A DNA stretch of 64,000 bases from Alkalispirochaeta sp. (lineage in GTDB: Bacteria; Spirochaetota; Spirochaetia; DSM-27196; Alkalispirochaetaceae): assembly GCA_965242725.1 (NCBI GenBank), contig CBDESZ010000005.1, positions 64,001-128,000 on the forward strand. The letters are read 5' to 3'. Shown in pieces: positions 47,083 to 64,000 of the stretch (positions are counted from its first letter, which is position 1; the number at the start of each line of letters is the position of its first letter). Under the pieces are notes generated by a model. The model saw only the letters and a list, made by a program, of their open reading frames with translations. It searched no databases and was not told the DNA's origin. Both the position numbers and the translations under genes were made by a program.

Positions 47083-48021
47083 TCAGAAGCCGCCGGTGGG
47101 GTGATCCATGTAGTTGGACTCGTCGTAGAGTGAGTCTGGATTGATGATGTACTGATCCACAGCCTCCCCGTTGATTGCCATAGAAATGGCTTCAAAACCG
47201 AGTGGTCCGAGCAGCGGACTGCACTCAACCGTCGCGTTCATGTCGCCACGATCGATCGCCTCAAAAGCCGCCTTGATCGCGTCTATTGAAATGATGAGAA
47301 CGTCGTCGCCCGGGTCCAACCCGGCCGCTTTGAGGGCCTCGATTGCGCCAAGGGCCATACCGTCGTTGTGCGCATACACGAGGTCGAACTCGACGCCTGC
47401 GGCCAACCACGCCTCTACAACCTGTCGGCCTTTGTCCTGACTCCACTCTCCCGTTTGAGACTCCACTACTTCGATTCCGGGATATTTATTGATGATCTCC
47501 ATAAATCCCTCGTTCCGCAGGATTGCCGGATCCGCCGCCGGATCACCGAACAACTCGACGACTTTTCCGTTGCCGTCAAGACGATTGGCGACCCATTCAC
47601 CGGCAAGACGCCCCTCGTAGGCAAAGTCGGATGAGATCTGGGTGACCCATAAATCTTCGGGAGCATCAACTCCCCTGTCGAGAAGTACTACCGGGATTCC
47701 TGCGTCCCTGGCCTCTTGAAGGACTTCATCCCAACCGCTGCGCGTTTGCGGAGCCAGCAAAATGCCATCCACCCTTTGTGCGATGAAGTCGCGGATCGCC
47801 GCAATCTGGCCGTCCTGCTCGGCAACAGACAAGCGCAGATCAACTCCCAGCCGCTCAGCTTCCTGCTGGACCGAATTGGTTTCAGTCGTGCGCCACGGAC
47901 TGTCCTCTTTGATCTGCGCAAAGCCGACGGTCATCGTACCGTCGTCTTCAACCGCGCCACCGGCAAACGCCATGGCTGCGACTATCGCGATAGACATCAC
48001 AAGGAATACACACCGTTTCAT
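47083..48021 (-). CDS. ytfQ: Sugar ABC transporter substrate-binding protein (YtfQ-like)
   Basis: VGFAQ...SPWR, AHND.MALGA, ECSPLLGP. Confidence 0.8.
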   Translation of the reverse strand: MKRCVFLVMSIAIVAAMAFAGGAVEDDGTMTVGFAQIKEDSPWRTTETNSVQQEAERLGVDLRLSVAEQDGQIAAIRDFIAQRVDGILLAPQTRSGWDEVLQEARDAGIPVVLLDRGVDAPEDLWVTQISSDFAYEGRLAGEWVANRLDGNGKVVELFGDPAADPAILRNEGFMEIINKYPGIEVVESQTGEWSQDKGRQVVEAWLAAGVEFDLVYAHNDGMALGAIEALKAAGLDPGDDVLIISIDAIKAAFEAIDRGDMNATVECSPLLGPLGFEAISMAINGEAVDQYIINPDSLYDESNYMDHPTGGF

Positions 48022-48061
48022 CTCGTAACCTCCCTGCCTTCATTGGAAGACGCTTTGATTG

Positions 48062-48094
48062 TGAATCAGGTCCCGTTTCGGGGTACCTGATTCA
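48062..48094. other. Intergenic hairpin upstream of the ytfQ-like gene
   Basis: TGAATCAGGT...ACCTGATTCA 10-bp outer stem with an inner CCCG/CGGG stem. Confidence 0.55.
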
Positions 48095-48182
48095 TGATGA
48101 GTCAGGGTATTTCTGTTGTCTTTGGACAGATCGGGGAATTGTTGTACGGATCAGCACAAGTGGCGCATGAAGACCGGTGCGA

Positions 48183-50045
48183 TCAGTACTTGCGGCTTCC
48201 TATGTACTCCCGGGCAACCTCCATCGGGAATACGCCCTCTTCCGTGTTGATCCGCAAGGGCAACTCTTCGCCATGGACGTAGTCAACGACGGCTTTCATG
48301 AGTTGAGGACCCAACAAAGGAGAGCACTCCACCGTACAATTGAGCTTGCCTTCAATCATCGCTTCAAATGCCGCCCTCACGCCGTCTATGGACACGAGGA
48401 GGATGTCAACGCCGGGATTCAACCCCGCCTCTTCAATTGCCCGGATTGCTCCGAGAGCCATGTCGTCATTGTGGGCATACACTACGTCTATCCGGTCGTA
48501 CCGCAGGAGAAATCTGCTCATAACGTCATACCCGAGATTTTCGATGAAATCCCCAGGCGTGCTGTCAATGATCGCGTGGGACTCCACCCGATCGATTACT
48601 TCGGAAAACCCCAGGCTGCGGTCGATTGCCGGTGCAGATCCGGGGAGTCCCGCGATCTCCACGATTCGCACATCGGTGCGACCCTCGGTTTCCTCCAACA
48701 CCCACTGCGCCGCCCGGCGTCCCTCTTCAATGAAATCGGCGACGAGATAGGTAGTGACAAGGGTCTCGTCGGATACGTCCACAGTCCGATCCGAAGCAAT
48801 AACGGGAATGCCTGCCTCCCTGGCCTCCTGCAGCACGTGATCCCAACCTGTCTCGACGATAGGGGAAAATGCGATTACGTCCACCCCTGCGCGAATGAAT
48901 TCCCGGATTGCCTCAATCTGGTTGGTCTGATCCAGGTCGGCATCGCGGAACATCAACGATATCCCGGCGTCCTCGGCTGCAGACTTTATGGATTCGGTGT
49001 TCGCCTCCCGCCAGGCGCTCTCCCGACCAACCTGGGAAAACCCCAATACGATCGGTTCATCCGGTTCCCGACGGACCACGTGATCTGGTATGCCGGGTAG
49101 TTCGTCCAGAATTGGTTCCGTTATGAGAGAGGACCGTAGAAATATCTTTTTAGGGAGACCATCACGGCCCTCAAGGATGTCCATGGCCCGGTGAACCGCC
49201 TCCTTCCCCCCGGTCGGGCAGGTGATCGTAGCCTCCAGGATGCCGTTAGCTACCAGCGCCAGTCCACCTTCCGGTCCGGTGAGTCCGTCGATACCGATGA
49301 TCGCCGTGTCGGCTATTCCGGCTTCGTTCAAAGCCCGATACACACCGTAGGCCATGGCGTCATTGTGCGCAAACACGACGTTGCTGGACGTAAACAGATC
49401 CAGGTGTGCCCTGGTGATGTCCTCCGCGCGGTCCCGCAGCCAATCGGCACTGTAACTGGCCAACACATCTATGTTCGGCGCCACTTCCAGTTCTTCCCGA
49501 AAGCCCCGCATGCGCTCAATCACGGGAAGTGACTTCGCGTTGCCGGTGATCTCGATCACACCGCCGGGTTCATCAGCCAGGTGGTCCTTCACAAATCGCG
49601 CTGCCTGTTTCCCCACCAGTCCGTTGTCGACGCCGATGAACAGTGAGTAGTCGTAGCCTTCTACAGCTTTATCGAGGACTACTACGGGTATCTGCTCGTA
49701 CACATCCCGAATAGCCGGGGCCATCGCTCTGGACTCCACCGGCGACACTATCAATAGATCGATCCCGAGCTGAATAAGCTTCTCAATGTCCGCTTCCTGT
49801 TTCGAGACGCTGTCGCCGGCATTGGTAAACACGATTCGCACACCTTCGTAGGTCTCCGCAGTGTCCTGGATCTCCGCGTTCATCACCTCACGCCACGGCT
49901 CGGAAAGGTTTGCCTGGGCAACGCCGATCACGAATCGAATGTCCGTCGCCACGCGGTCTGTTCCGCACCCTGCAGTCAGCGCAATCGCTCCGGCCAGGAC
50001 CAGCATTCGCAACGACGCAGATCGACGATTCCGCTGCTTTCTCAT
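48183..50045 (-). CDS. Lipoprotein with two tandem sugar-binding (Peripla_BP) domains
   Basis: LTAGC lipobox; two ~290-aa repeats (GVAQANLSEPWR...AHNDAMA; GFSQVGRESAWR...AHNDDMA...ECSPLLGP). Confidence 0.88.
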   Translation of the reverse strand: MRKQRNRRSASLRMLVLAGAIALTAGCGTDRVATDIRFVIGVAQANLSEPWREVMNAEIQDTAETYEGVRIVFTNAGDSVSKQEADIEKLIQLGIDLLIVSPVESRAMAPAIRDVYEQIPVVVLDKAVEGYDYSLFIGVDNGLVGKQAARFVKDHLADEPGGVIEITGNAKSLPVIERMRGFREELEVAPNIDVLASYSADWLRDRAEDITRAHLDLFTSSNVVFAHNDAMAYGVYRALNEAGIADTAIIGIDGLTGPEGGLALVANGILEATITCPTGGKEAVHRAMDILEGRDGLPKKIFLRSSLITEPILDELPGIPDHVVRREPDEPIVLGFSQVGRESAWREANTESIKSAAEDAGISLMFRDADLDQTNQIEAIREFIRAGVDVIAFSPIVETGWDHVLQEAREAGIPVIASDRTVDVSDETLVTTYLVADFIEEGRRAAQWVLEETEGRTDVRIVEIAGLPGSAPAIDRSLGFSEVIDRVESHAIIDSTPGDFIENLGYDVMSRFLLRYDRIDVVYAHNDDMALGAIRAIEEAGLNPGVDILLVSIDGVRAAFEAMIEGKLNCTVECSPLLGPQLMKAVVDYVHGEELPLRINTEEGVFPMEVAREYIGSRKY

Positions 50046-51247
50046 GTCTTGACCTCCCCGCTCTTTCGGTAGTCACCGGGGGGCCTCCCGGCGATTCGCG
50101 TGAACATCCGGGTAAAATAGTGTTGACTCGCGTACCCCACTTCGTCCGCAACTTCGTAGATCATCTTGTCCTCGGCCCGGAGGAGCTGCATTGCCTTGCA
50201 GACCCGATACCGGTTGGTGAACTCGGAAAAACCGTATCCGGTGTTCTGTTTGAGCAACCGACTCACATAGGCCGGGCTCAGGGCCAACGCGTCCGAGGCC
50301 AATTCAAGGCTCAGGTCCTTGTTTCCGAACTCCTCGTCCAGGAACGATACAAACTTCCGCATAAACGCACTTACATGGCCTTTGTGTTCGAGGGCATCCG
50401 TCAGCACTTCGTAGTCCTGGACAAATCCTTCATAGTCAAGCCGGCAGTCTCCGACTGCGATCTGCAAAGGAATGTTCAGGCTCGATTGCGCATCCTTCCG
50501 GATCAATTCGGCTGCGTCTGCCGTCAACTCGCCAAAAATCATGTACAACAGGCGCTCATACCGGTCCTCAAAACGGATCCACGATGACCTGTCTCCGAGA
50601 TGAATCTCTGCGAGTCTATTAACGGCGGTCTTCCGTACGTGGTGCTCCTCGAGATCTGCCGCAGTCCCTCCGTAGAATCGGGCATTCAGTTGAATAGCCA
50701 GTAATCGCGCGCTTGCCGTCGCATCGAGGTGCAGAACCATTTTCCGATCGTTTATCTCGTCCTGTGAAGAAAATCCCTGAATCCAGTCGTCAAACAACTC
50801 CTGAATCAGGCCGTCTCGATTCCGCCGCACCTCGTTGGATGCCCATTGCAGCAGCTCGTTCTTCGTCCGCCGCTCAGCCAGTACTGAGGTGGCCCGGTCC
50901 AGGATTCGCCTCAGGGTCCGGGAATCTACGGGTTTCAGAACGTATTCGAAAATGGGCAACTCCACGGCCCGGCGGGCGTAATCAAACTCATCATGGCCCG
51001 TAATGACAATGACGATGCAGTTTTCGGCTTCCTCCCGGATCTGCTCGATGAAATCGAGCCCGTTCATCCGGGGCATACTGATGTCCACAAGCAGGATATC
51101 CGGTAGCTCCTCCCGGATTCGTTCCAGTGCTGCCACTCCGTCGCCGGCTTCTCCACAAATGATAAACTCGGCACCTGCCGACGAAATCAAACTGCCCAGG
51201 CGACGTCTGGTTTTGGGCTCGTCATCCGCGATGAACACCGTCCACAT
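50042..51247 (-). CDS. Response regulator, REC + AraC (YesN-like)
   Basis: ADDE, DISMP, KP; C-terminal 'VGYASQHYFTRMF'. Confidence 0.92.
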   Translation of the reverse strand: MWTVFIADDEPKTRRRLGSLISSAGAEFIICGEAGDGVAALERIREELPDILLVDISMPRMNGLDFIEQIREEAENCIVIVITGHDEFDYARRAVELPIFEYVLKPVDSRTLRRILDRATSVLAERRTKNELLQWASNEVRRNRDGLIQELFDDWIQGFSSQDEINDRKMVLHLDATASARLLAIQLNARFYGGTAADLEEHHVRKTAVNRLAEIHLGDRSSWIRFEDRYERLLYMIFGELTADAAELIRKDAQSSLNIPLQIAVGDCRLDYEGFVQDYEVLTDALEHKGHVSAFMRKFVSFLDEEFGNKDLSLELASDALALSPAYVSRLLKQNTGYGFSEFTNRYRVCKAMQLLRAEDKMIYEVADEVGYASQHYFTRMFTRIAGRPPGDYRKSGEVKT

Positions 51248-51256
51248 ACAGTCCTC

Positions 51257-53227
51257 CTATACCTTCTCGCGGATGATTGGATGTCGAATGGTGACGTCCG
51301 TGCCTCTATTCTCACTGCTGACGACGGTAATCCCATACTCGTCGCCATATGTCAGACTTATCCTATCGTTTACATTATAAAGGGCAAACGCCGTCCGATC
51401 GGGTTCGTGATTGACGTGAGACAACCCCTGGCTGATCTGGGCCAGTTCCGCGGCCGGTATGCCTACACCGTCGTCGGCCACCGTGAGCTCAAGCACGTCG
51501 GCGTTCTCCGCGATATTCACGCGAATGGTACCGGATCCCGATTTCTCCTTTATGCCGTGATAGATGGCGTTTTCCACCAGAGGTTGGAGGATCATCTTTT
51601 GAACCTGTAGTCCCGTAAGGTTCTCCGGGCACTCTACCGAGAAATCGAACTTCTCCTCATATCTAAGCTTCTGAATCGTCAGGTAACTCCTGACGTGATC
51701 GATCTCGTCACCCAGCGAAATCATCTCCCTGCCCTGGCTCAGGGCGATCCTGAATAGCCGCGTCAGCGCCATCACGGCCTCCGCGATCTGGTCGTGCCCC
51801 TTTTCTTCTGCCATCCAGAGAATCGTATCCAGCGTGTTATACAGGAAGTGTGGTTTAATCTGCTGTTGCAGGATCCGCAGCTCCGCTTCATGTTTTGCCT
51901 TCTGCTCCGTGTATACCAGATCCAGCAACGTCTGAATCCGATCCAGCATGGAGTTCAGCCCTTGGCCCAGATCGTCGATCTCGTCCCGGCTATTGCCGTC
52001 GTATCGAACATCCAGATCGCCGTGGCCCGCTCGTTCCATTACTGAACGGAGGTGTAGAACCGGCTTTGAGATTGCCGTGGAGTACACCATTGAAATGACG
52101 ACGGTGAGCGCAATCGTAACCAGCGCGATGATCAATGCAGACATCTGTACAAATCGTACCGGTTGGAGTGCCTCGTCCAGGTAATAGACCCCTATCGTTT
52201 TCCAGCCCATATACGGAGATTCGGCAAAAATGAACCGGTATCCCCGGTTGTCTATCGTCCGTTCCACGATCTGGCTGCTATTGGTGAACCAATCCGGATT
52301 TATCCGGTACACGATCGAATTGACGGGAGCGTATACGATCTCCTCATTCCCGTCGACGATCATATAAAACGCCGACTCACCCCTTGATAGACCCTGGAAC
52401 GAATCCTCCAGGTAGTCCAGGGACAAATCAACCATCAGCACTCCCGCAAACGTCCCAGTTTCCGGATCGTCGATCGACTTAATAACCGACACAATCTCGT
52501 CCGGTCCAATACCGGAGGGATTCCGCAAATTCCGCCCGATCGGCCGTGTGACCAAACTGAAATCGCCGGGAGTCGTGCTTGCCTGGACAAACCAATCCTC
52601 CTGGGGCAGCGGATCGCGCATGATTCGTTCAAGGTCACTGGCGACAAATCTTCCGGACTTTGTGACCGCAATCATCCCCGCTATCTCGGGATGGGAATCC
52701 ATGGTCGCCCGGAAAAGTCGGGTAATCAGTTCAGTTTCGTCATCCGAACCACGAGCGGTCGCCTCAGAAACCTCTGCGTGCATTTCATACATGCCGGCGG
52801 AAACACTGACGGAAGAGGGCTGCCCGGCCTGGTGTTCCGGTCGACTGAGGAAGAACCGGCCTATCATCTCGTCCTGCAGAATCATATCCAGCAGCTTCTC
52901 CTGGTCCCGGATCGTGAGTTCAAGGTTGTGAGTGACCCGTTCCACCATATCCCTGGTGTACCTGGCAGAGAGCTCCGCCACTGAACGGGAATACAGAATC
53001 GGCGCGACGATACCCAGCGTGAGAATAGGGAGGAGAATGATCGTCGAAAAATAAATCAGGACCCGCTCACGGAACCTGGCTTTTGCCATAAACAGAGATT
53101 GTATACCGCGAATTCGCGAGCTGGCAATGTTGGTGATGTAGTCCCTGTGGAGGGGGCTTCGGGTACTCCATGTCGAAAGCCTTCTCCGCCGGCTTCTCGA
53201 TGGATGTGGCTCCGGCGCGATACTCAT
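51257..53227 (-). CDS. Sensor histidine kinase (YesM-like, dCache + HAMP + His_kinase)
   Basis: QQQIKPHFLYNTL, LQPLVENAIYHG, DDGVG; alternative start at 53089. Confidence 0.92.
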   Translation of the reverse strand: MSIAPEPHPSRSRRRRLSTWSTRSPLHRDYITNIASSRIRGIQSLFMAKARFRERVLIYFSTIILLPILTLGIVAPILYSRSVAELSARYTRDMVERVTHNLELTIRDQEKLLDMILQDEMIGRFFLSRPEHQAGQPSSVSVSAGMYEMHAEVSEATARGSDDETELITRLFRATMDSHPEIAGMIAVTKSGRFVASDLERIMRDPLPQEDWFVQASTTPGDFSLVTRPIGRNLRNPSGIGPDEIVSVIKSIDDPETGTFAGVLMVDLSLDYLEDSFQGLSRGESAFYMIVDGNEEIVYAPVNSIVYRINPDWFTNSSQIVERTIDNRGYRFIFAESPYMGWKTIGVYYLDEALQPVRFVQMSALIIALVTIALTVVISMVYSTAISKPVLHLRSVMERAGHGDLDVRYDGNSRDEIDDLGQGLNSMLDRIQTLLDLVYTEQKAKHEAELRILQQQIKPHFLYNTLDTILWMAEEKGHDQIAEAVMALTRLFRIALSQGREMISLGDEIDHVRSYLTIQKLRYEEKFDFSVECPENLTGLQVQKMILQPLVENAIYHGIKEKSGSGTIRVNIAENADVLELTVADDGVGIPAAELAQISQGLSHVNHEPDRTAFALYNVNDRISLTYGDEYGITVVSSENRGTDVTIRHPIIREKV

Positions 53228-54547: not shown

Positions 54548-54673
54548 CACCGCCGCCGCCTCGGTACCGTTAAACCGGTCGTTGCCAATATCCGTAGCGC
54601 ATCGGGCTGGATCGCTTCACCTTGCGCGGATGGAAGAAGGTCGACACGCAATGGAAGCTTTACTGCCTGGTAC
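54548..54673 (+). pseudogene. IS1182-family transposase C-terminal remnant (frameshifted)
   Basis: Two frames join to give RRRLGTVKPVVANIRSA / GLDRFTLRGWKKVDTQWKLYCLV, which resembles the IS1182 DDE C-terminus. Confidence 0.7.
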
Positions 54674-54721
54674 GTTAACTGCGCATCATGAATTGGCCGC
54701 AGTTTCGCTAAGTTGTTATAT
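54673..54721 (-). other. Truncated attC site (R'' ATATAAC present; R' replaced by the IS1182 remnant)
   Basis: Plus-strand GTTATATT at 54715 matches the cassette entry end at 56355; residual AACTGCG/CGCAGTT stem. Confidence 0.5.
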
Positions 54722-54810
54722 TATAAGCGATTAACGCGCCAAAAAATGTTCGGGAGCACCGATTTGTTTTATTGCGTGCAAAACAAAGCACCTCACACTG
54801 TTCAGTCGAC

Positions 54811-55401
54811 TTACTTCTTTAACAAAGCACCCAATGCTACCTGCTGTAGCTTACTAAATGCAGATGGTTCCATTCGTTCATATTCCAAATAGGCAGGGCT
54901 ATATACCATTCCGACACCGAGAACATCGAAATAAACGAGTAAGGTCTCATTACTAACGCTATCTTCGATCTCGCCGGCTCTGCGTCCAGCTTCTATAAAT
55001 GGAACGGCAGTATTCTCGATTGCCGTACGACGAAGCTCCAGAATCTCAGATCGAATTTCCGGGGATTCCGTGCGGAGCCACTCGGTTAACTCGCCGCCAT
55101 AGGCTTGAATCGATCGACTTTTGATATCAAATAGTTCAAACAGCTTGTCTCTATAATTCTTTTCGCTCCCTAAGAGCTTTTCTATCACCGATGCTAACTC
55201 CTGGAAATAGCGGATTATACTTTCCCGGATCAGATCATTCTTGGTTCCGAAATTTTTAAAAACGGTCACTCGAGATGCTCCCGCATTCCGTGCTATTTCT
55301 GTAACACTAACGTTTCTCATGCCATTACGAGCAAACAGTTTGGTCGCCGCTTGTAGAATTTCTTCCCGTTTCTTGAGTCGGCGCGAATCGTGACCATTCA
55401 T
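54811..55401 (-). CDS. TetR/AcrR family regulator (cassette-borne)
   Basis: 'ILQAATKLFARNG...VSVTEIA..AGASRVTVFKNFGTK'. Confidence 0.9.
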   Translation of the reverse strand: MNGHDSRRLKKREEILQAATKLFARNGMRNVSVTEIARNAGASRVTVFKNFGTKNDLIRESIIRYFQELASVIEKLLGSEKNYRDKLFELFDIKSRSIQAYGGELTEWLRTESPEIRSEILELRRTAIENTAVPFIEAGRRAGEIEDSVSNETLLVYFDVLGVGMVYSPAYLEYERMEPSAFSKLQQVALGALLKK

Positions 55402-55521
55402 ATCTATTTCATCTTACCGTTAGTGAAGCACCAAGACGAGGGTAATCACTTGATCCCAACGGAAACTCGTTTTAAAATGTACTATAATCGCTCCGATAGT
55501 TCATATTTATTTGGGGGGCGT

Positions 55522-56316
55522 ATGACGATTTCTCATTTCCTCTACAACGCGTTTACTATAGAGCATCGGAGTTTGCGCATTGCGATTGATCCTGGCGCAG
55601 ATCTATTCCTTTTCCGTTTCAAACCACTTATCCCAACGGACAGTTGGAAATCCTTCACCCATACGTTTGTCACTCACGCAGATCCTGACCACCATTGGTA
55701 CACCGACAAAGTCGCGGCCGCTTCTGGCTCACCGATTATCTGTGGAAGAGGAATGACAAGGACACGTGGAGAGAAAACCTATCTGCTTGGGCCGCGTAGC
55801 CGTGGCTTAGCTTTCGACTACGAACCTCCGTTACTTCATTCTATCTCCGTTGGTGAGACACTCGAAATCACTCCCGAATTATCCGTAACCGGAATCCCCG
55901 CCCGACACGGACCTCTTTCATTCCGGTTTGGACCGTTCAAGAAAACGTTTCGCCCAGGACCCACGGAGCGTATCGGCTACGGGGCGATAGGATTCGTTAT
56001 ACAAATTGAAAACACATCAATCGTGAACTTGGGAGACACCTTATTCTTAGGCGACCAATGGTCGAGTATCAACGAACCGGACGTTCTGATGATTCCTATC
56101 GGAGGCGACTTGATTGGAAATACTATGGGTATTGACGACGCGCTTAAAGTCGTTCGACAAATTCAGCCAAGAATCGTGATCCCCTGTCATTTTAATATCC
56201 CATCCTTTTTCCGGATCAATGGAAACCCAACAGACGTATCCTTGTTCGTTCGCGAAATCGAAGAATCCGGATCGGAATGCCGAATACTCACGAGAGGCGA
56301 ATCTATCGTAATCTAG
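55522..56316 (+). CDS. MBL-fold metallo-hydrolase (cassette-borne)
   Basis: THADPDH, IPARH, LGDT, MIPIGG, PCHF motifs. Confidence 0.85.
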   Translation: MTISHFLYNAFTIEHRSLRIAIDPGADLFLFRFKPLIPTDSWKSFTHTFVTHADPDHHWYTDKVAAASGSPIICGRGMTRTRGEKTYLLGPRSRGLAFDYEPPLLHSISVGETLEITPELSVTGIPARHGPLSFRFGPFKKTFRPGPTERIGYGAIGFVIQIENTSIVNLGDTLFLGDQWSSINEPDVLMIPIGGDLIGNTMGIDDALKVVRQIQPRIVIPCHFNIPSFFRINGNPTDVSLFVREIEESGSECRILTRGESIVI

Positions 56317-56348
56317 ATTCAACGAAAATCAGTTCGCAGTTCACGCGA

Positions 56349-56625
56349 ATATAACGTTCGCGTTAATAGCCGGCTCCGGCCCGCGCGCAAGCGTGGGCAT
56401 GGCACGGAAATTGCGCGTGACATAGAGTAGATAGGGTCCAACAACCGGCGAATCATGGAACAGATCGGATATCGGTCTCCACAAGAAGTCGAAATCGAGT
56501 ACTATCAAGAACATTCAACCTGTCCGTTGAAACCGGGGCGGTTCACGGTTCGGATGTCGATGGGCATTTCCCGATTGTTCTCATGATTTCACCGGCACGC
56601 AGTGCATTCTTATCTAATGTTACGC
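56349..56625 (-). other. Interrupted/hybrid attC site
   Basis: R' GTTATAT at 56355-56349 with a long-type arm, R'' GCGTAAC at 56625-56619, IS3 remnant in between; L boxes do not pair. Confidence 0.6.
56440..56545 (+). pseudogene. IS3-family right-end remnant
   Basis: Translates as NNRRIMEQIGYRSPQEVEIEYY (integrase-core C-terminus) and ends in CCGGGGCGGTTCA, the complement of the TGAACCGCCCCGG IS3/IS51-type terminus. Confidence 0.75.
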
Positions 56626-56930
56626 CGCAAAAGGATATCCTCAATATTCCGTCTTCCGTCAATTACCGCATGGACAAGAATGCGTTCACCATCGATTGTG
56701 TAGAATAATCTCCACGGCGGTATAACGATTTCCCGATATTTCGTGATGTTTTGGCGCTCTAATTCCGGAATCACTCGTCCTGATTCAGGTTGCCGCGTTA
56801 GCTGCTTGACCGACGTATCGATCATGTCGAGGAATGATTTGGCGTGGTGGGTTGAGTGATTATTCAGAATCCACGAAACGATGTCCTCGAGATCGTGTGC
56901 GGCAATGGTCGACCAAATGATCTGAAGCAT
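56610..56930 (-). CDS. Type II TA toxin, RelE/ParE family
   Basis: 'IIWS..A..DLEDI', 'PESGRVIPE', 'YRE....WRLFY', 'VIDGRRN'. Confidence 0.9.
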   Translation of the reverse strand: MLQIIWSTIAAHDLEDIVSWILNNHSTHHAKSFLDMIDTSVKQLTRQPESGRVIPELERQNITKYREIVIPPWRLFYTIDGERILVHAVIDGRRNIEDILLRRNIR

Positions 56931-56945
56931 TGATTGCGTGGCCGT

Positions 56946-57224
56946 CTATGTCTGGGTATTGATCCGATTTCTTACAAACGACATGGCTTCCTCATGAGAC
57001 AACGTATTGTCGCGTTGGAGATCATGTTCGCTTTGAGAGATTAATTTCATAATACCGAGAGCATCTTTCATCTCCTGGAATGAAGCGGTATCGAGCAGGA
57101 CTGCTTTTGCCTCACCATTCTGGGTGATCACGATCGGGTTGTGGGATTCATTCACCTGACGAAGCATTTCTGCGGCATTTGATTTGACATACGAGATGGG
57201 TCGGATATCGGATTGTAGATTCAT
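56946..57224 (-). CDS. Type II TA antitoxin, Phd/YefM family
   Basis: 'IRPISYVKSNAAEML', 'PIVITQNGEAKAVL'. Confidence 0.92.
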   Translation of the reverse strand: MNLQSDIRPISYVKSNAAEMLRQVNESHNPIVITQNGEAKAVLLDTASFQEMKDALGIMKLISQSEHDLQRDNTLSHEEAMSFVRNRINTQT

Positions 57225-57292
57225 CACGTCTCCAGTCCGAATATAGTCACTTATTTAGTCGTCGTGGTCAAGCTTTCGGAAATAAAAGGGCG

Positions 57293-57451
57293 TCGTAACG
57301 TGGAGCTGACGTGCCGGCTTCGTTCCCGAGGCTTCGCCGAGGAATTGGCGGATAATTGCGCGTAACGAGAATACTAAAATACGTTTAATTCATTTCCCCA
57401 AAATCAATTAACGTGAGAAAGAAACGGTCGAATCAAGCGACCATGTTATGT
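57293..57451 (-). other. attC site, 159 bp with AT-rich variable region
   Basis: R'' ACATAAC, R' GTTACGA; arms GCT[T]GATTCG[A]CCG versus GCTGACGTGCCG pair 9/12 once the two extrahelical bases are removed. Confidence 0.7.
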
Positions 57452-57505
57452 CCTGGTGTCGATTTCGTTCGTACGTTTTTTTGAATTCGACCCCACGAAT
57501 GGGTA

Positions 57506-58904
57506 GAGTCCCATAGAGTGGTGTAAAAAGCGGTGGAACTAAACAGCCACCGCGCGTCTCCGGTAAGCTGTGAATCGACCAAAACACACAGCAAGGAGAC
57601 GAACACGGTGACCACTGAAAGCATCGCATTGATGGAGCTGATTGAAAAGCACGGCGACAAGGACTTCCTCAGAGAAATTGGCCAATGGACCCTTCAGCGG
57701 CTTATGGAGTTGGAAGTTGAGCAGCAGGTGGGCGCCGGACCGCACGAGCGGACTGACGATCGGACTACCCATCGTAACGGCTATCGGGATCGAACATTGG
57801 AGACACGAATCGGATCGCTGTCATTGCGAATTCCGAAGCTTCGGTCCGGTAGCTATTTCCCGTCGTTTCTGGACCCCCGGAAGAAGAGTGAGCACGCCCT
57901 CGTCGCGGTTGTCCAGGAGGCGTACATCAACGGCGTCAGCACCCGTAAGGTCGATGATCTGGTTCAGTCGATGGGAATGACCGGGATATCCAAGAGCCAG
58001 GTATCGCGGCTTTGCGCGGAACTGGACGAGCAGGTAAAAACGTTCCTGGAACGTCCTCTCAGCGGGGACTGGGCGTATGTCTGGTTTGACGCGACGTACG
58101 TGAAGTCGCGGAACGATGGACGAGTTGTGAGCCGTGCGATTGTTGTTGCGGTGGGAGTAAGTGCCGAAGGACGCCGTGAAGTGCTCGGAATCGCCGTCGG
58201 ACCGGCTGAGACAGAGGCGTTCTGGATGGAGTTTCTGCGTTCCCTGGTAGCACGAGGACTCTCCGGGGTGCGATTGGTGATCTCCGATGCCCACATCGGG
58301 TTGAAGAACGCCATCAGCCAAGTACTGGGAGCAACCTGGCAACGGTGTCGTGTGCACTTCATGCATCAGCCGCGTACCGCAGGTACGAGGAACGCGGCGA
58401 CAGGAATGCGTTGGCCCACGTACCTCGCAAGCAGCATCAGATGGTCGCCGCAGTGATCCGTACCGCATTCGTTCAAGAGAGCCGAGACGACGCGGTAGCG
58501 CAATGGCGGGAGACGGCCGATCGGCTGAGAGATCGTTTTCCGAAACTGGGAGAGCTCATGGATGACGCTGAGGCCGATGTTCTCGCATTCATGACGTTCC
58601 CGAAAGAACATTGGCGGCAGATATCAAGCACGAACCCGCTGGAACGCATCAACAAGGAGATTAAGCGGCGGACCAACGTTGTCGGCATCTTCCCGAATGA
58701 TGGAGCGATCACCCGTCTGGTAGGAGCTCTGGTGAACGAACAATCGGATGAGTGGCAGGTAACTCGAAAGTATATGAGCCAGGAGAGCTTGCAGAAGGTT
58801 CTCAAACCGGCGTCGGAGCAGCGGATGTTGTCGGCGGAAGGAACGGATATGGTAGCGTAGGCTCAGCTACCGGAGACGAAAAGTTACACCACTTGACGGG
58901 ACGC
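57506..58904 (+). mobile_element. IS256-family insertion sequence
   Basis: Imperfect terminal inverted repeats GAGTCCCATAGAGTGGTGTAA / TTACACCACTTGACGGGACGC flanking a mutator-type transposase; no clean target duplication. Confidence 0.9.
57608..58860 (+). pseudogene. IS256 transposase disrupted by a 38-nt insertion at 58364-58401
   Basis: RNGYR, GVSTRKV, WFDATY, ISDAHIGL, QRCRVHFM | RNALAHVP, STNPLERINKEIKRR; frame changes at the insert. Confidence 0.9.
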
Positions 58905-59100
58905 AACACACGAACGGGTTTCTGATTAAATCGCTCGTATTTCGTTGTATCCGGAGAGAAATATTTCTATCTTTCGAATAACACAGGTACTTATTCTCGC
59001 AGATGTACAAGATTAGGAATAACCGATTTCCAGTAAACGGTATTGGCGGCTCATCCGAAAAAGACATCGGTTAGTCGAAATATGACCAAGGAGGCAATCG

Positions 59101-60072
59101 ATGAAAGTGGTAAGTGTCCCCAAATACGGCTCTCCAGACGGACTTGAGATACGAGAAGTTCCGATTCCTGATCCAAGTTCGGGAGAAGTCTTGGTCAAAC
59201 TATCCGCTGCATCGGTGAATGCCGGCGACTGGCATATTGTTCGGGGTACACCTTGGATCATTCGTTTGATGTTCGGCGTTAACAAACCAAAGATAACGGC
59301 GCTCGGTTCGGACATGGCCGGCATCGTCGAAACAGTTGGTGACGGCGTGACGAAGTTCGTTCCGGGGGATGCGGTGTTTGCATCACTACCAAACTTTGGC
59401 GCGTTTGCAGAGTATGCCCTGGTCTCATCGGACGCTTTGGTGAAAAAACCCACGGGACTCAGCTTCGAAGAGGCTGCAGCTATTCCACTATCCGGCGTGA
59501 CGGCCTTGCAAGGGCTCAGGGACGTAGGCAAGATTACAAAAGATGATCGTGTTCTTATCATCGGCGCGTCGGGCGGCGTTGGTTCTTTTGCCGTCCAGAT
59601 AGCGAAAGCTTTCGGTGCGCGAGTCACAGCCGTTTGCAGTACGACTAAAATACAGATGGTACAATCCCTTGGAGCAGATGAGGTTGTTGACTACAAAGTA
59701 GAAGACGTGACTTTACGTAGAAATGAGTTCGACCTCGTTCTTGATGCCGGCGCATTTCGTTCTATCTTCGACTATAGCGGGTGTCTTTCGAAGACCGGAC
59801 GATACGTCCTCGTAGGAGGTTCCAACGCTCAGTTTTTTCAGGCAATGCTTCTGGGACCGCTGAGATCAAAAAAAACAGGGCAGCGATTCGGTACGATGAC
59901 CATGAAGTCCAACCCCGAAGACTTAGCGTTCCTCACAGGGCTTGTCGACGCGGGGAAGTTACGGTCGATCGTTGGGCAGCGCTTCTCTCTCACCGATGCC
60001 GCTGCGGCAGTGCGTTGCCTCGAAAACGGTTGCTCTACCGGGAAGGTCATCATCACAATCGCAAAAAGTTAA
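59101..60072 (+). CDS. NAD(P)-dependent medium-chain alcohol dehydrogenase/quinone oxidoreductase-like protein (inverted in cassette)
   Basis: AGGAGG SD, GSDMAG, GAFAEY, GASGGVG, LGADEV, GKVII. Confidence 0.9.
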   Translation: MKVVSVPKYGSPDGLEIREVPIPDPSSGEVLVKLSAASVNAGDWHIVRGTPWIIRLMFGVNKPKITALGSDMAGIVETVGDGVTKFVPGDAVFASLPNFGAFAEYALVSSDALVKKPTGLSFEEAAAIPLSGVTALQGLRDVGKITKDDRVLIIGASGGVGSFAVQIAKAFGARVTAVCSTTKIQMVQSLGADEVVDYKVEDVTLRRNEFDLVLDAGAFRSIFDYSGCLSKTGRYVLVGGSNAQFFQAMLLGPLRSKKTGQRFGTMTMKSNPEDLAFLTGLVDAGKLRSIVGQRFSLTDAAAAVRCLENGCSTGKVIITIAKS

Positions 60073-60152
60073 CTCGAAATGTATCAAGATGCATCGATAG
60101 CCGAGTATTCGATACCGCCCGGTTTGAGAAGTTCACAATAAACTCGACCGGA

Positions 60153-60278
60153 ACATAACGACGACATCACCTGCAATCTGCAGCCCGGAGCCGCGTAGCG
60201 GCGGAGGGATTGGCACGTGTTTTTGCGGATGCAAAAACCGTGACAAGAAAAATGTTGTAGTCCACCGAAATGCTATAT
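60153..60278 (-). other. attC site, 126 bp, with variant R'' (ATATAGC)
   Basis: R' GTTATGT; about 95 bp nearly identical to the 62422 site; ATPase stop codon inside R''. Confidence 0.8.
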
Positions 60279-61439
60279 CGCGGTTTGAACCAGCTCCTCA
60301 TGTAGAGCCTTCCATCCTACTACGCGGGTTCCATTTCTTTCATATGAGTCATCGCCTGCATACACTAGATATGTGGCAGGGGTATCGGCCTTTGCCAGAG
60401 TCTTCCAATAATCGAGACCGGAAAAAGCATCATTCCTGATTGTCTTCCCCGATTTGATCTCGATCCCCGATTGCTTCATTCCCGACTCAAGAATGACATC
60501 GATCTCTTTGCGATGATTGTCACGCCAGAAATAGAGGCCAAATTTCTCCCCTATGTTGAAATTGCTTTTCACTAATTCCGTCACGACAAATGTCTCGAAC
60601 AACGCCCCCTTGAGAAAATGATAATCAAGCTGATCCTTATCCCGAATCCCCAGCAAACTGCATACGAGTCCGGTATCGGTAAAATAAATCTTCGGATTCT
60701 TCACGATCCGTTTGTTGTAGTTCTTGTGATACGGCGGAAGCCGATAGATCAGGAAACTTGCTTCCAGTATCGATATCCATTCACGAATCGTTCCATGAAC
60801 GACGCCACATTGCTCCGAGATTGATGACAGATTCAGTTCCTGTCCCGTTCTTCCCGCCAGGATACGCAAGAATTTTAGGAATCCATCGATTTTTGTTATT
60901 TGCTTGATCTGACGAATATCTTTCTCAATGTAGGTTGCGATGTAGTTTTTATAGAACGTTTCGGGACGAATATGCTGATCGTAGATTCGAGGGTAGCTAC
61001 CCGCAAAAAGCAAATCTGATATATCCAGATTGAAAGTTCTCATTTCATACGCGGAGAACGGCAGTAGCCTTGTGAGACCGACACGTCCGGCAAGTGATTG
61101 GGTAATCTGTTCCATTAGCAGAAAGTTGTGTGAACCGGTGATAATAATTCGGCCGGTCGTGTCAAGTTGATCAACGTGTGTCTGGAGATACGAAATGAGG
61201 TGGGGGACTCGTTGGATTTCATCAAAAATGACATCTGAATGAAATCGCCCCAGGAATCCTCTGGGATCGGATTTGGCAAATTCTCGATGATCGATATCCT
61301 CCAGACTCACATAATCAAAATTGGGAAACAGCTTTTTCGCGAGGGTAGTCTTGCCCGATTGTCGCGGCCCAAGGATCGCCACGAGTGGGAACTCGGTGCT
61401 CAGCGAATGGATTTCAGCTTCTAATTGTCGATCGATCAT
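60273..61439 (-). CDS. AAA_14 ATPase with DUF4143 domain (cassette-borne)
   Basis: GPRQSGKTT, FDEIQ, TGS, SLAGR, PKIYFTDTGL, GALFE, EIDVI...IEIK. Confidence 0.92.
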   Translation of the reverse strand: MIDRQLEAEIHSLSTEFPLVAILGPRQSGKTTLAKKLFPNFDYVSLEDIDHREFAKSDPRGFLGRFHSDVIFDEIQRVPHLISYLQTHVDQLDTTGRIIITGSHNFLLMEQITQSLAGRVGLTRLLPFSAYEMRTFNLDISDLLFAGSYPRIYDQHIRPETFYKNYIATYIEKDIRQIKQITKIDGFLKFLRILAGRTGQELNLSSISEQCGVVHGTIREWISILEASFLIYRLPPYHKNYNKRIVKNPKIYFTDTGLVCSLLGIRDKDQLDYHFLKGALFETFVVTELVKSNFNIGEKFGLYFWRDNHRKEIDVILESGMKQSGIEIKSGKTIRNDAFSGLDYWKTLAKADTPATYLVYAGDDSYERNGTRVVGWKALHEELVQTAI

Positions 61440-61445
61440 GGTCTT

Positions 61446-61473
61446 AGCATAGTTTATATGTACAAATTGTCAA
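61446..61473 (-). promoter_or_regulatory. Cassette-internal sigma-70 promoter of the ATPase gene
   Basis: TTGACA-N16-TATGCT ending 6 nt before the ATG. Confidence 0.55.
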
Positions 61474-61497
61474 TACAAAAAAACATTTTGTACCGCG

Positions 61498-61558
61498 ATA
61501 TAACGAAAGAGCTCAGTTACGTGGCGAGAGCCACGACAACTGGAGAGAAATGTTACAT
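61498..61558 (-). other. attC site, 61 bp
   Basis: R'' ATGTAAC (contains the antitoxin stop TAA), CGTGGC-TCTC-GCCACG hairpin, L' ACTGAGC, R' GTTATAT. Confidence 0.88.
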
Positions 61559-61873
61559 TGCGTCCTTCCCTATACTACCTCCGATCACATTTCTGATTTC
61601 ATCTGTTTCTACGAGTTGATCGGTCACGTATTTATGAATGATTGAACTTATCAGCGTCTGATAGGGTACACCTTCTCGAGACGCCCGGAGTTTTGTCATC
61701 TCAAGATCTTGTTCCGACAATCGGAGACTGATCGCTCGAGATTTACGGGCGGTATCAAGAATTTTCTCGATTCGTTTTCGCTTTTCAGGACCGACAGACA
61801 CCGTCTGATCAGCGTTGTTTTCGATTTCTCGTTCTTCGGGCGTCAAATCGAATTCGCCATTCGTTAAGTTCAT
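61553..61873 (-). CDS. Antitoxin with CopG/RHH-like domain (BrnA-type partner)
   Basis: 'ISLRLSEQDL...K.RA..EGVPYQTLISSIIHKY'; ATGA overlap with the toxin gene. Confidence 0.85.
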   Translation of the reverse strand: MNLTNGEFDLTPEEREIENNADQTVSVGPEKRKRIEKILDTARKSRAISLRLSEQDLEMTKLRASREGVPYQTLISSIIHKYVTDQLVETDEIRNVIGGSIGKDAM

Positions 61874-62136
61874 ATGTTACCTCCGTAGCGTCGATGGTAT
61901 TTTCGACTGGGAAAAGCCGTTTTCAGAAAGATCGTTTCTGAATCATCTATGAGGAACGGTACCACCCATGTGTAATGACGTATCGTGAGGATGAAGTATT
62001 GCTGGTTTTCTCTGGTCGGGTTTTCGACGATGTCAAGATAGTCTCCGTCGAGAATCATTCCGGCGATCTCTTCAAACGATATTCCCCGTTCTCGCTTGAG
62101 AACCGTATTCTTTTCCTCATCCCAGACAACATCCAT
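61870..62136 (-). CDS. BrnT/DUF497-like ribonuclease toxin
   Basis: 'WDEEKN..LKRERGISFEE', 'IFLKTAFPSRK'. Confidence 0.88.
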   Translation of the reverse strand: MDVVWDEEKNTVLKRERGISFEEIAGMILDGDYLDIVENPTRENQQYFILTIRHYTWVVPFLIDDSETIFLKTAFPSRKYHRRYGGNI

Positions 62137-62144
62137 ACGATATA

Positions 62145-62174
62145 ATTATACTCCGATTGTATATACATTGTGAA
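62145..62174 (-). promoter_or_regulatory. TA promoter with palindromic operator
   Basis: TTCACA-N18-TATAAT with TGTATATACA palindrome (62158-62167) in the spacer. Confidence 0.6.
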
Positions 62175-62421
62175 TTGGTGTATTCAACGGTTGCCGGATT
62201 GTTCGGGTGTATCACTTTGTAGTCGGGACTATCGACGTCCAGGTCTGATAAGATTTTTCTACGAAAGGTCAAATTCTTTTTATCTGGCAAAAAACCGCCG
62301 ATAGGTTCTGGCTGTCGACACTTCCCGATAAGGGGAGTTTTTCGTTCAGGATCATACCGACATAGATTTTTCGTGCGGGTAAGGTATTGGGCAAAAACAC
62401 ATATTTCGAACCACGGATGCA

Positions 62422-62546
62422 ATGTAACGCTGAGGTCACCTGCCGGTTCCGGCCCGGAGCCGCGTAGCGGCGGAGGGATTGGCACGTGTTTTTGCGATTG
62501 CAAAAACCGTGACAAGAAAATGTTGTAGTCCACCGAATTGTTATCC
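62422..62546 (-). other. attC site, 125 bp
   Basis: R'' GGATAAC, R' GTTACAT, internal hairpins GCCGC-GTA-GCGGC and GTTTTTGC-GATT-GCAAAAAC; near-identical to the 60153 site. Confidence 0.82.
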
Positions 62547-62674
62547 CGCCGTTTACCTTGTACGAAAGTGATTCGTTTTTAGAAACGGATGCGCCGTTCA
62601 TGTCGATCGTTCATGTAAACCCGAGAATTGATAAATCGTCGCTCTGGCCAACGCAGAAGTAAAGATCGATCTCA

Positions 62675-63034
62675 TCACACAAATTTTTCGACGGATACTT
62701 CGAATAACGTCGCGAGTTTCTTCGCCATATTTTTGCTGATCGATCGATGGCCGTTTTCCATATTCGAAATATTTTGGCGCGTCAGATTTCCGAGTTGTTC
62801 TGCCAATTGGTCCTGCGTCATCCCATGCATCTGTCGATACATCCGTACGTTTTCTCCCGGAGTTATTGTCTCCCGGATCGACTGATACCAATCACTTTTT
62901 GTCACTTCAACTATTTCATCATCTTCGTCTTCGATGACTTCAATCTCTCCGTACTGGTCACGCAAAAATTTCACCAGCGATCCGCCGATTTCTCCTTCAA
63001 GTCTAATATGGGGCTTTTTCACGACTACCTGCAT
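62675..63034 (-). CDS. XRE-family HTH protein, probable HigA-like antitoxin
   Basis: 'MTQDQLAEQLG..TRQNISNMENGHRSI'; downstream of and overlapping the toxin gene. Confidence 0.85.
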   Translation of the reverse strand: MQVVVKKPHIRLEGEIGGSLVKFLRDQYGEIEVIEDEDDEIVEVTKSDWYQSIRETITPGENVRMYRQMHGMTQDQLAEQLGNLTRQNISNMENGHRSISKNMAKKLATLFEVSVEKFV

Positions 63035-63287
63035 AGTACACCTCGATTTCCATTTCTCCATTTTCCACGCGCCAACATGCCACCCATGAATAGGAGAGAT
63101 GGCAATGGTATTCTCGATCGGATAGCTTGCTGAAATTCCGCCATTCGGTTCGTATTGGTCCTTTTCTGATCAGATCCTCGACCAAATTGGCGAACAAGAC
63201 TTGTTCTTTCCGCGGCATCTTTCCGATTTGTTTTTCTACCTTTCGGCGGAAGAAGACGCGCCAGGTTTCGTTCGGATCTTCAGTCAT
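63003..63287 (-). CDS. RelE/HigB-like toxin
   Basis: 'W.V....KVEKQI.KMP', 'W.NFSKL....YHCHL...WVACW', 'IEVYYAGSREKAPY'; toxin-first order. Confidence 0.75.
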   Translation of the reverse strand: MTEDPNETWRVFFRRKVEKQIGKMPRKEQVLFANLVEDLIRKGPIRTEWRNFSKLSDREYHCHLSYSWVACWRVENGEMEIEVYYAGSREKAPY

Positions 63288-63330
63288 GGTCCGGTGTTCC
63301 GATTTCAAGTCCGATCTTCACCATGCAATA

Positions 63331-63359
63331 ATTGTAACCATATACTGGTTATTTATCAA
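63331..63359 (-). promoter_or_regulatory. TA promoter with palindromic operator
   Basis: TTGATA-N17-TACAAT with TAACCA-N5-TGGTTA palindrome (63335-63351). Confidence 0.7.
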
Positions 63360-63376
63360 CCTCACCTTCAACGGCG

Positions 63377-63437
63377 GGATAACGACAGAGCTCAGTTGCG
63401 TGGCGAGAGCCACGACAACTGAAGTGACGTGTTATCT
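63377..63437 (-). other. attC site, 61 bp, canonical
   Basis: AGATAAC-ACGTC-ACT[T]CAGT-TG[T]CGTGGC-TCTC-GCCACG-CA-ACTGAGC-TCTGTC-GTTATCC: R''/L''/L'/R' spacing and both extrahelical bases as in classical short attC sites. Confidence 0.92.
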
Positions 63438-63451
63438 GCCTGACGTCCTGC

Positions 63452-63878
63452 CTACCGATATTTTTCTTCAATCTGGCTTCGAAAAGACCGTGCAAGTCCC
63501 GGACTTTTTTCTAGGATTTCCATTATCGCTTTCGGATCTATTTCAAAGCTGTATGCATGTCGAATGAAGTGGCGAAACGCCAAGAATCCGAGCAGATTCG
63601 ATCGGGTTGTATTGTCGATCAGGGATTGTTTCTCGGCGAGTTCAAGAAGAGCCGTATGCCAATTATTGCCCGACGGGATCGGAATGGTTTGATCTTTTAT
63701 GGCAAACTCGATCACCTTCTCGATGCCATTATAGTATTGTCGACAAGGAGAGTGCGGCCGCTCGAATTTCGATGTCGTCGAGTGGATTCTGATTCGATTT
63801 TCGGAGCAGCAAGTCTATCAAGTCCAATTCACGATTAATATTTTCAAACTCGCCATGAATTGCCGCCTTGTAGTCCAT
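63452..63878 (-). pseudogene. HEPN (HepT-like) RNase toxin, frameshifted near 63735
   Basis: The frame from ATG 63878 ends ...AAALSLSTIL* (TAA 63731-63729); a shifted frame continues YNGIEKV...WHTALL...FRHFIRHAY (RX4H motif). Confidence 0.75.
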
Positions 63879-63879
63879 C

Positions 63880-64000
63880 TTACGCGACCCGTTTGACATG
63901 TGGGTTGGAAAGTATTTGGCGACCGAAATTCACCTGCAAATCAAGATCGACAAGATCAACCGGTCTGGAGGACCGATTCAATACCTCGCCGTAAATCGCG
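63880..64000 (-). CDS. Minimal nucleotidyltransferase (MNT antitoxin), 5'-partial
   Basis: ...AIYGEVLNRSSRPVDLVDLD...RVA*; stop adjacent to the HEPN start. Confidence 0.7.
   Translation of the reverse strand, partial: AIYGEVLNRSSRPVDLVDLDLQVNFGRQILSNPHVKRVA

Follow-up and report, generated by a model that had tools for sequence, protein, structure and literature searches.

A 13-cassette integron array in Alkalispirochaeta sp. with a likely attI and a relic of its integrase gene

Introduction

How does an integron cassette array arise that has no integrase gene beside it, and is such an array still in use? The question is raised by a stretch of 64,000 nucleotides from Alkalispirochaeta sp. 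(contig CBDESZ010000005.1, here C5, positions 64001-128000; hereafter the window), the right-hand part of which holds small genes separated by attC-like sites. The genome under study, G000, is a 4.34-Mb assembly of 34 contigs that is 91.8% complete; other G numbers denote the relatives with which it was compared, and coordinates above 64,000 are given on the scale of the window as the C5 position minus 64,000. In integrons, the integrase IntI recombines the folded bottom strand of an attC site with a double-stranded attI site at G|TT, with the newest cassette coming first. An earlier note, made from the letters of the window, had read positions 54673..64000 as an integron cassette array of a probable spirochaete, a host guess that holds, and had expected attI and intI beyond the right edge or, failing these, an attC cluster that lacks an integrase (CALIN).

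The analysis indicates, with a probability of about 0.88, that the locus is a sedentary chromosomal integron array of 13 cassettes whose own intI has been eroded in place to a relic, leaving a CALIN with a likely attI. The CALIN state is already known, and as a CALIN the array is ordinary. What distinguishes it is that its origin can be read: the putative attI and a barely visible intI relic point to decay in place.

Extent of the array and identity of its units

The segment 54673..64000 is a cassette array, as had been proposed, but position 64000 is not its end, since six attC sites and the attI-like site lie in the next 14 kb, together with six more cassettes and the intI relic, reaching to C5:142432. 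In total the array spans 23.4 kb (54,715-78,129) with 13 cassettes, and the window holds its distal 40% only. The block is also visibly richer in AT, a claim of the earlier note that is borne out by a GC content of 0.45-0.51 per kb (IS256 excepted) compared to mostly 0.53-0.68 elsewhere.

A cassette in its circular form has a start (R') that is complementary to its own R''. The same correspondence is found here, with cassette start and own R'' agreeing at 7 of 7 positions in ten of the 13 cassettes and at 6 of 7 in the other three, and it persists across insertions of insertion sequences (IS). At the three variable positions of R'/R'', 37 of 39 match, against a permutation mean of 16.1, and none of 200,000 permutations reached 36. 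Furthermore, cassette 8 (62540..63383) recurs in G005, G009 and G013 at 77-91% identity, and the three junctions examined show a different neighbouring attC from its G|TT. The units are gene cassettes: R' is complementary to the unit's own R'', and the unit moves as a whole at G|TT. Together with the attC anatomy described below, these observations confirm the integron cassette architecture that had been recognised from the letters. Joints left by cassette excision were not found among the contigs of four sequencing runs, which cover most of the array in the probable source sample, contigs being a form of data that drops rare variants.

attC sites

A covariance model (R1) was built in this analysis from 26 attC sites of five genomes, and the window was searched with filters off at E<=5. 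This returned five matches only, at 63377, 62422, 61498, 60153 and 57293; the first four were part of the training set, whereas 57293 had been left out of it and is matched at E 3e-4. Genome-wide, where 150 of 1,529 candidates were scored, R1 recognises 19 distinct sites, 11 of them in this array, two in a cluster on contig C16 and six on the mis-binned contig C6. On the same sampling, attC-like repeats scattered over the genome were not seen; the earlier note had named scatter unrelated to gene boundaries as a test, and the sites instead lie in few clusters and at gene boundaries. The array contains two damaged sites besides its 11 matches.

Among the seven attC-like sites originally listed, five stand where they had been placed and are R1 matches, whereas the site at 56349 is interrupted by an IS and that at 54673 consists of the tail of an IS1182 followed by an isolated R''. 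The two 61-bp sites on the minus strand, 63377..63437 and 61498..61558, have the layout R''-5 nt-L''(8)...L'(7)-6 nt-R', with extrahelical bases on the plus (bottom) strand that are A and A in the former and G and A in the latter. Folding, which had been suggested as a check, gives both a far more stable structure than shuffles (z -5.9 and -5.0). The textbook layout and the reading of the minus strand as the top strand both hold. The two stop codons said to lie within R'' are likewise present, as TAG at 60273-60275 and TAA at 61553-61555.

The other sites in the window, all on the minus strand, are less regular. In those at 62422..62546 (125 bp) and 60153..60278 (126 bp), the right arm matches an intact site of G005 while the left arm comes from another family, and for this reason they are read from their sequences as hybrids, probably defective ones; their L boxes pair at 5 of 7 and 4 of 7 positions, respectively, and the latter has AGC for AAC in R''. 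The site at 57293..57451 (159 bp) is 72% identical to an attC at C5:135308, and its L-box anatomy is weak. At 56349..56625, R' and R'' are intact, the body is replaced by an IS-end stub with a terminal repeat at 56514-56546, and no attC-type fold is seen. The segment 54673-54713 folds no better than shuffles (z -1.3) and was rejected as an attC site, being the 3' tail of an IS1182-family transposase; the lone R'' at 54715-54721 (minus strand), the attC remnant of cassette 13, is the only cassette-derived part there. Beyond the window, attC sites on the minus strand lie at 71,307-71,462 (with its R' at 66,934-66,940), 72,432-72,541, 72,775-72,893, 74,616-76,334 (where an IS1111-type element splits the site at R''), 76,571-76,696 and 77,518-77,621. 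Over the array, seven sites have L boxes that pair at 6-7 of 7 positions, the first extrahelical base being G in four, A in two and C in one. The attC anatomy as a whole (AAC/GTT triplets, R/L layout and extrahelical bases) is found in seven sites, is weak in 62422, 60153 and 57293, and is absent from 56349 and 54673.

Among the 26 sites of the five genomes, 14 pairs show two-sided changes compared to 8.5 in shuffles (0 of 500 as many), and 85% of the cells are paired, against 30-45% when the alignment is slid; the structure was drawn from the same 26 sequences and the pairs were named by hand. RNAalifold gave no structure on this alignment, probably because it contains gaps and short sites that are misaligned. 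With strict heuristic criteria no more than four attC sites were picked up, as the spacers vary. An attC model for Spirochaetes exists (PMC8352920).

That the palindromes are REP-like (repetitive extragenic palindromic) or IS-derived repeats, in an IS-rich island without integron history, has a negligible probability. In its favour, the block contains seven IS elements or stubs, the tail of an IS had been listed among the sites, and Rfam gave no match on the array at E<=1, although a match was not expected. Against this stand the confinement of the sites to gene boundaries in a few clusters and the finding that the site families of this array also fill the intact integrons of G017, G014, G005 and G009. 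The R'/R'' correspondence that ties both ends of each cassette, and the occurrence of cassette 8 beside other attC sites at G|TT in relatives, are counted as refuting the idea.

The head of the array and the remains of intI

The head of the array is reached 14.1 kb past the window, where the crossover G of a putative attI, assigned by homology and position, lies at 78,129. In nine relatives with a divergent intI, a purine-rich motif ending in ATG|TTA precedes the first cassette, and the head here has the same form. Judged from these sequences, the array is likely headed by an attI, a putative one that is the weakest-matching of the heads. Over 41 genomes the motif gave 33 matches compared to 11 for a reversed control; the pattern was written after the heads of G000 had been seen, and these match by construction. 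The matches on contigs C30 and C31, as well as 9 of the 15 matches in relatives that are not linked to intI, come without a downstream attC or a clear GC drop and were treated as chance.

On the far side of the head, 78,263-78,432 holds on the plus strand, opposite to the cassettes, about 170 nt of a 1.25-kb gene that profile and DNA matches identify as an intI relic, with fumC directly beyond it (from 78,434). Within the 305 nt between the head and the fumC stop, a 16-residue match to the IntI profile scores 11.4 bits, whereas the maxima were 6.5 bits among 2,000 shuffles and 7.3 bits among 2,000 random pieces. It is the sole match of the corresponding regular expression in the six frames of the genome, and the DNA of the relic matches other intI genes at E 8e-6. 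Two weaker intI pieces, from the start region and a 'LLFLYR'-like stretch, precede it in the right order, with 0 of 40 random pieces as good, and the intI start-codon region aligns with that of G003 at -145/-147 from the crossover, with 2 of 400 random pieces as good. The relic was looked for in the attI-fumC interval as the layout predicted; a blind genome-wide search gave E 0.7 only. It was detected by the full IntI profile and missed by an N-terminal-only profile, and such a relic would likely also escape a search for pseudogenes that relies on the C-terminal domain of IntI.

An intact intI was not found in G000, where no match to TIGR02249 exceeds the cut-off and the best is a XerC/D-like pair on contig C25; among the relatives, 16 of 40 have a match above it. 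The locus thus lacks the intact adjacent IntI of a complete integron and, because intI survives as a relic only, the element is a CALIN. Nor does it have the inverse (Treponema-type) layout, the relic lying on the strand opposite to the cassettes. Of what had been expected beyond the right edge, the attI-like site is there and intI is reduced to a relic, so that the alternative of a CALIN applies.

Several observations weigh against this interpretation. The attI motif ending in ATG|TT also resembles a ribosome-binding site followed by a start codon. The head of this array is the weakest scorer, with 21 other kept sites outscoring it in the full matrix, and on the upstream bases alone it falls outside the top 25 of 42,008 GTTR sites. 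A consensus scan for a cassette promoter (Pc) gave no sites, although a sequence resembling an extended -10 element, TGTTATAAT, occurs about 120 nt upstream of attI. The alignment of the intI start region is significant for one of the six relatives tried. The assembly is 91.8% complete and includes a mis-binned contig, so that an intact intI elsewhere in the chromosome is possible. Finally, fumC was rejected as a conserved integron locus, as none of 15 relatives has an integron adjoining it; relatives carry other genes after fumC, and a DNA search of the attI-fumC interval against 21 relatives of the family found nothing better than E 0.008.

The resemblance to a translation start extends to the first cassette, in which the crossover ATG opens the 171-residue GNAT frame, whose first 29 residues include no further common start codon. 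At 17 other heads the same ATG frame runs for 2-30 codons in 16 cases and for 89 codons in one, and its opening of the GNAT frame may be chance.

Two more attI-headed attC clusters are present in G000, on contigs C16 (L072:5630-8434) and C11 (L073:5239-6723). In both, the first cassette matches its own R'' by inspection, no IntI relic lies within 3 kb of the head, and the first genes (318 and 419 residues) have no PADLOC or NCBIfam match. The two heads align with each other over about 30 bp, and that of C16 also aligns with the intI-linked attI of G014.

These heads bear on a different origin, namely that a GWT site which by chance resembles a translation start (attG) received the cassettes and that the array was then grown or moved by IS elements, attI and relic being coincidental. 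Insertion at attG needs GWT only (bioRxiv 2022.09.11.507474), the head motif looks like a ribosome-binding site with ATG, and two of the six motif matches in G000 head nothing; moreover, the array is full of IS elements, and the genes after fumC differ in relatives. We nevertheless regard this origin as improbable, for a relic specific to IntI is present with the distance and orientation expected of it, the C16 and C11 heads share their alignment with each other and, for C16, with an intI-linked attI, and an array of 13 cassettes exceeds 93% of CALINs (PMC4889954).

Proposed history and use of the array

For an integron eroded in place, the preferred reading, the following course is proposed. 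A divergent-type IntI would have bound the folded bottom strand of each attC site and cut it at G|TT, and circular cassettes would have been inserted one by one at attI, with the GNAT cassette as the latest arrival. The intI gene would then have decayed in place. After its loss, IS1182, the IS1111-type element and the IS-end stub would have hit attC sites, whereas IS256 and IS21 would have entered cassettes; two attC sites would have become mismatched hybrids, and with the IS hits much of the distal array would have been fixed. Toxin-antitoxin cassettes would discourage deletion (PMC13108822), and the array is probably kept in the genome by its five. The six or seven sites with well-paired L boxes would be substrates for IntI supplied in trans.

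Whether such supply still occurs leads to an extension of this explanation, to which we give slightly less than even odds: the array would be an active satellite platform, its orphan attI still loaded by an IntI that is encoded elsewhere in the chromosome, unassembled, or that is transient. The relatives provide most of the relevant observations. Their IntI proteins form two clades with different attI motifs in the genus, one inverse (G015, G011 and G010, with G029) and one divergent (G003, G014 and G006, with G017 and others). Three of the five closed genomes contain orphan attI arrays far from their single intact integron, namely G014 (two), G038 (one, with 12 attC sites) and G028 (one), and one G014 orphan head and the G038 head retain at least 120 bp of the intI-linked platform. 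In two pairs of orphan heads, C6 with G003:C2 and G006:C74 with G013:C68, identity is 95% and 90% over the 200 nt immediately upstream but 22% and 21% downstream, with the switch exactly at G|TT. Because both members of each pair are without an adjacent intI in the stretch examined, the change is most simply explained by exchange in trans after loss of intI, and the sequences suggest that loading in trans takes place in relatives. In addition, a cassette of about 10 kb, with open reading frames that read as heavy-metal ATPase and ArsR-like genes, occupies the second position of an orphan array on C6, and its first 6.3 kb from G|TT are 99.97% identical to the first cassette of the intact integron of G003. 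In the present array, heavy erosion of the relic contrasts with proximal attC sites that have stayed intact.

Other observations count against continued loading here. The evidence for it comes from heads of relatives rather than from strains of this species, and the genomes are for the most part fragmented bins. Downstream of the G003:C2 and G006:C74 heads, attC sites were not detected, a third orphan pair (G005/G016) shares its first cassette, and no orphan attI head was found in the closed genomes G017 and G030, two of the five. Many distal attC sites of the array are damaged. Contig C6, moreover, was rejected as part of G000 and its arrays were not counted for this genome: it very likely strayed in from a species resembling G003, with long stretches 97-100% identical to G003 by sequence comparison while core genes are at 64-81%, a second divergent copy for 21% of it, and the lowest tetranucleotide correlation. 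C6 has its own orphan attI beside a tRNA gene. In closed genomes, small attC clusters without a recognisable attI head also occur, at G014:C1:1537622-1540425 and G017:C1 about 2471400-2475100, which are possibly secondary-site insertions.

A still more tentative proposal is that of a distributed integron, in which one intI would serve several duplicated, integrase-less attI platforms dispersed over the chromosome that still exchange cassettes at G|TT, this array being one of them. Here, the gene of the first cassette would moreover receive its ribosome-binding site and start codon from attI. The literature covered, main texts with few subscription papers among them, gave no description of a single integrase serving several arrays with orphan attI heads. 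From the comparison come an attI motif that can be used for spirochaete integrons of the divergent type and a collection of orphan attI sites; with these, a recombination assay could address what Cury et al. left open, namely the origin of CALINs and whether they remain in use. If loading in trans is true, many supposedly inert CALINs would be active satellite platforms, and 'one attI per integron' would undercount the sites of gene capture.

Comparison with described systems

CALINs, neighbouring intI pseudogenes and mobilisation in trans have been described or proposed (PMC4889954; PMC9668308; bioRxiv 2025.06.18.660453). In a survey of CALINs, 6.6% had more than 10 cassettes, and 15 of 279 had a neighbouring intI pseudogene (PMC4889954). 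The present array resembles these CALINs in that two or more attC sites lie within a cassette array with no intact intI nearby, and belongs to the minority with an intI pseudogene; it differs from most of them in its 13 cassettes, its recognisable attI (a feature outside the search of that survey) and the two further attI-headed clusters in the genome (PMC4889954). The decayed integrons of Xanthomonas are similar in that the array persists after intI is lost, there by large deletions, and in that extra CALINs occur at other loci (bioRxiv 2025.06.18.660453). However, the Xanthomonas platform is fixed downstream of ilvD, whereas here the platform neighbours differ between species, and attI sites are not described for the extra loci in the available part of that source (bioRxiv 2025.06.18.660453).

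Among spirochaetes, the Treponema integrons, including the intI-less one of T. phagedenis, are likewise sedentary arrays in which intI can be lost and attC kept, but Treponema intI points toward the cassettes (inverse type; PMC3607928), while the divergent type is seen in the present relic and in the relatives that match it. Sedentary Vibrio integrons rich in toxin-antitoxin cassettes share the interspersed toxin-antitoxin cassettes (5 of 13 here) and the gene-less cassettes; they have one attC repeat compared to heterogeneous families of 61-159 bp here (PMC13108822), and it is the present array that has no working integrase in cis. The IS1111-type element of the array is like the IS1111-attC elements ISKpn4 and ISPst6 in its layout, having inverted repeats in sub-terminal position, a long non-coding region on the 3' side and a place at one end of an attC, and unlike them in that a short hairpin disrupts its 5' end (PMC11187229).

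Cassette cargo

Five of the 13 cassettes, all of which lie on the minus strand, carry toxin-antitoxin pairs. Cassette 12 (56619..57299; R'/R'' 6 of 7) encodes a Phd/YefM antitoxin and a ParE toxin according to Pfam and has homologous stretches in nine loci of relatives. Cassette 9 (61552..62428; R'/R'' 7 of 7), which has a stop codon inside R'', encodes a BrnT-like toxin, below the Pfam cut-off, and a BrnA/CopG antitoxin. Cassette 7 (63,431-66,940; R'/R'' 7 of 7) crosses the window end and carries an MNT/HEPN pair, of which the HEPN gene (63452-63715) and the end of the MNT gene fall within the window, and cassette 2 (76,690-77,524) carries a Gp49-like toxin with a helix-turn-helix (HTH) partner. 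The fifth pair is that of cassette 8, in which a gene for 101 residues without family match lies beside an HTH antitoxin-like gene; its layout points to a toxin-antitoxin pair, and its position to a HigB-like product.

Two cassettes are defence candidates by PADLOC, namely cassette 10 (60272..61504), with an AAA_14/DUF4143 ATPase (PDC-S01) and a stop codon inside R'', and cassette 4 (72,887-74,622), with GmrSD/HEC-05. The remaining cargo comprises the GNAT gene of cassette 1 (77,615-78,129), a zinc-binding dehydrogenase family gene (59101-60072, plus strand; Pfam) in cassette 11 (57445..60159; R'/R'' 7 of 7), and a TetR regulator (54811-55401, minus strand) with a metallo-beta-lactamase-fold hydrolase (to 56316, plus strand) in cassette 13 (54715..56355; Pfam TetR_N and Lactamase_B_3; R'/R'' 7 of 7). 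The gene of cassette 6 (71,456-72,438) encodes 270 residues without a Pfam, PADLOC or NCBIfam match, in which we presume nucleotide-cyclase-like motifs.

Two cassettes are gene-less, cassette 5 (72,535-72,781; L011:19535-19781) and cassette 3 (76,328-76,577; L012:3328-3577). They measure 247-250 bp, are 90% alike and have 10-bp terminal inverted repeats and an internal hairpin. A third copy lies on C6 (74% identity), and no full-length relative was found in 98 other genomes. The RNA fold is modest (z -2.5), and the unit could be a promoter cassette or a small RNA.

Insertion sequences and flanking genes

The seven IS elements or stubs of the array are IS256, two IS21, IS1182, an IS1182 stub, an IS1111-type element and the IS-end stub, four of which sit in attC sites. 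The 3' stub of an IS1182-family transposase, which replaces the body of the last attC, covers 54550..54711 (plus strand, ends approximate); it is 75% identical in DNA to the intact IS1182 of the array, and its frames correspond to the C-terminus of that element. The intact IS1182 (about 66,943-71,308; L011:13935-18310; plus strand) is inserted into R' of an attC, only a few bases from its edge, and this family may prefer attC sites. The stub in the attC at 56349 presumably belongs to IS3, judging from a motif. A frameshifted IS256 with inverted repeat I3 occupies about 57501-58910 in cassette 11. One IS21 (about 64,220-66,830; L011:11220-13830) lies in cassette 7 and the other (L011:15600-18205) is nested in the right end of IS1182; each has three identical or near-identical copies in the genome, from which it follows that the IS21 elements moved recently.

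The IS1111-type element, of the IS110 family, lies at one end of its attC, and the 5' end of its transposase gene is interrupted by the short hairpin (L012:1838-1880). Short pieces similar to it also occur on contigs C25, C27 and C30 and after fumC in G014, which suggests a REP-like element. On the distal flank of the array, window positions 47083-53227 carry ordinary chromosomal genes, namely those for sugar-binding proteins, an AraC-type response regulator and a Cache-HAMP histidine kinase.

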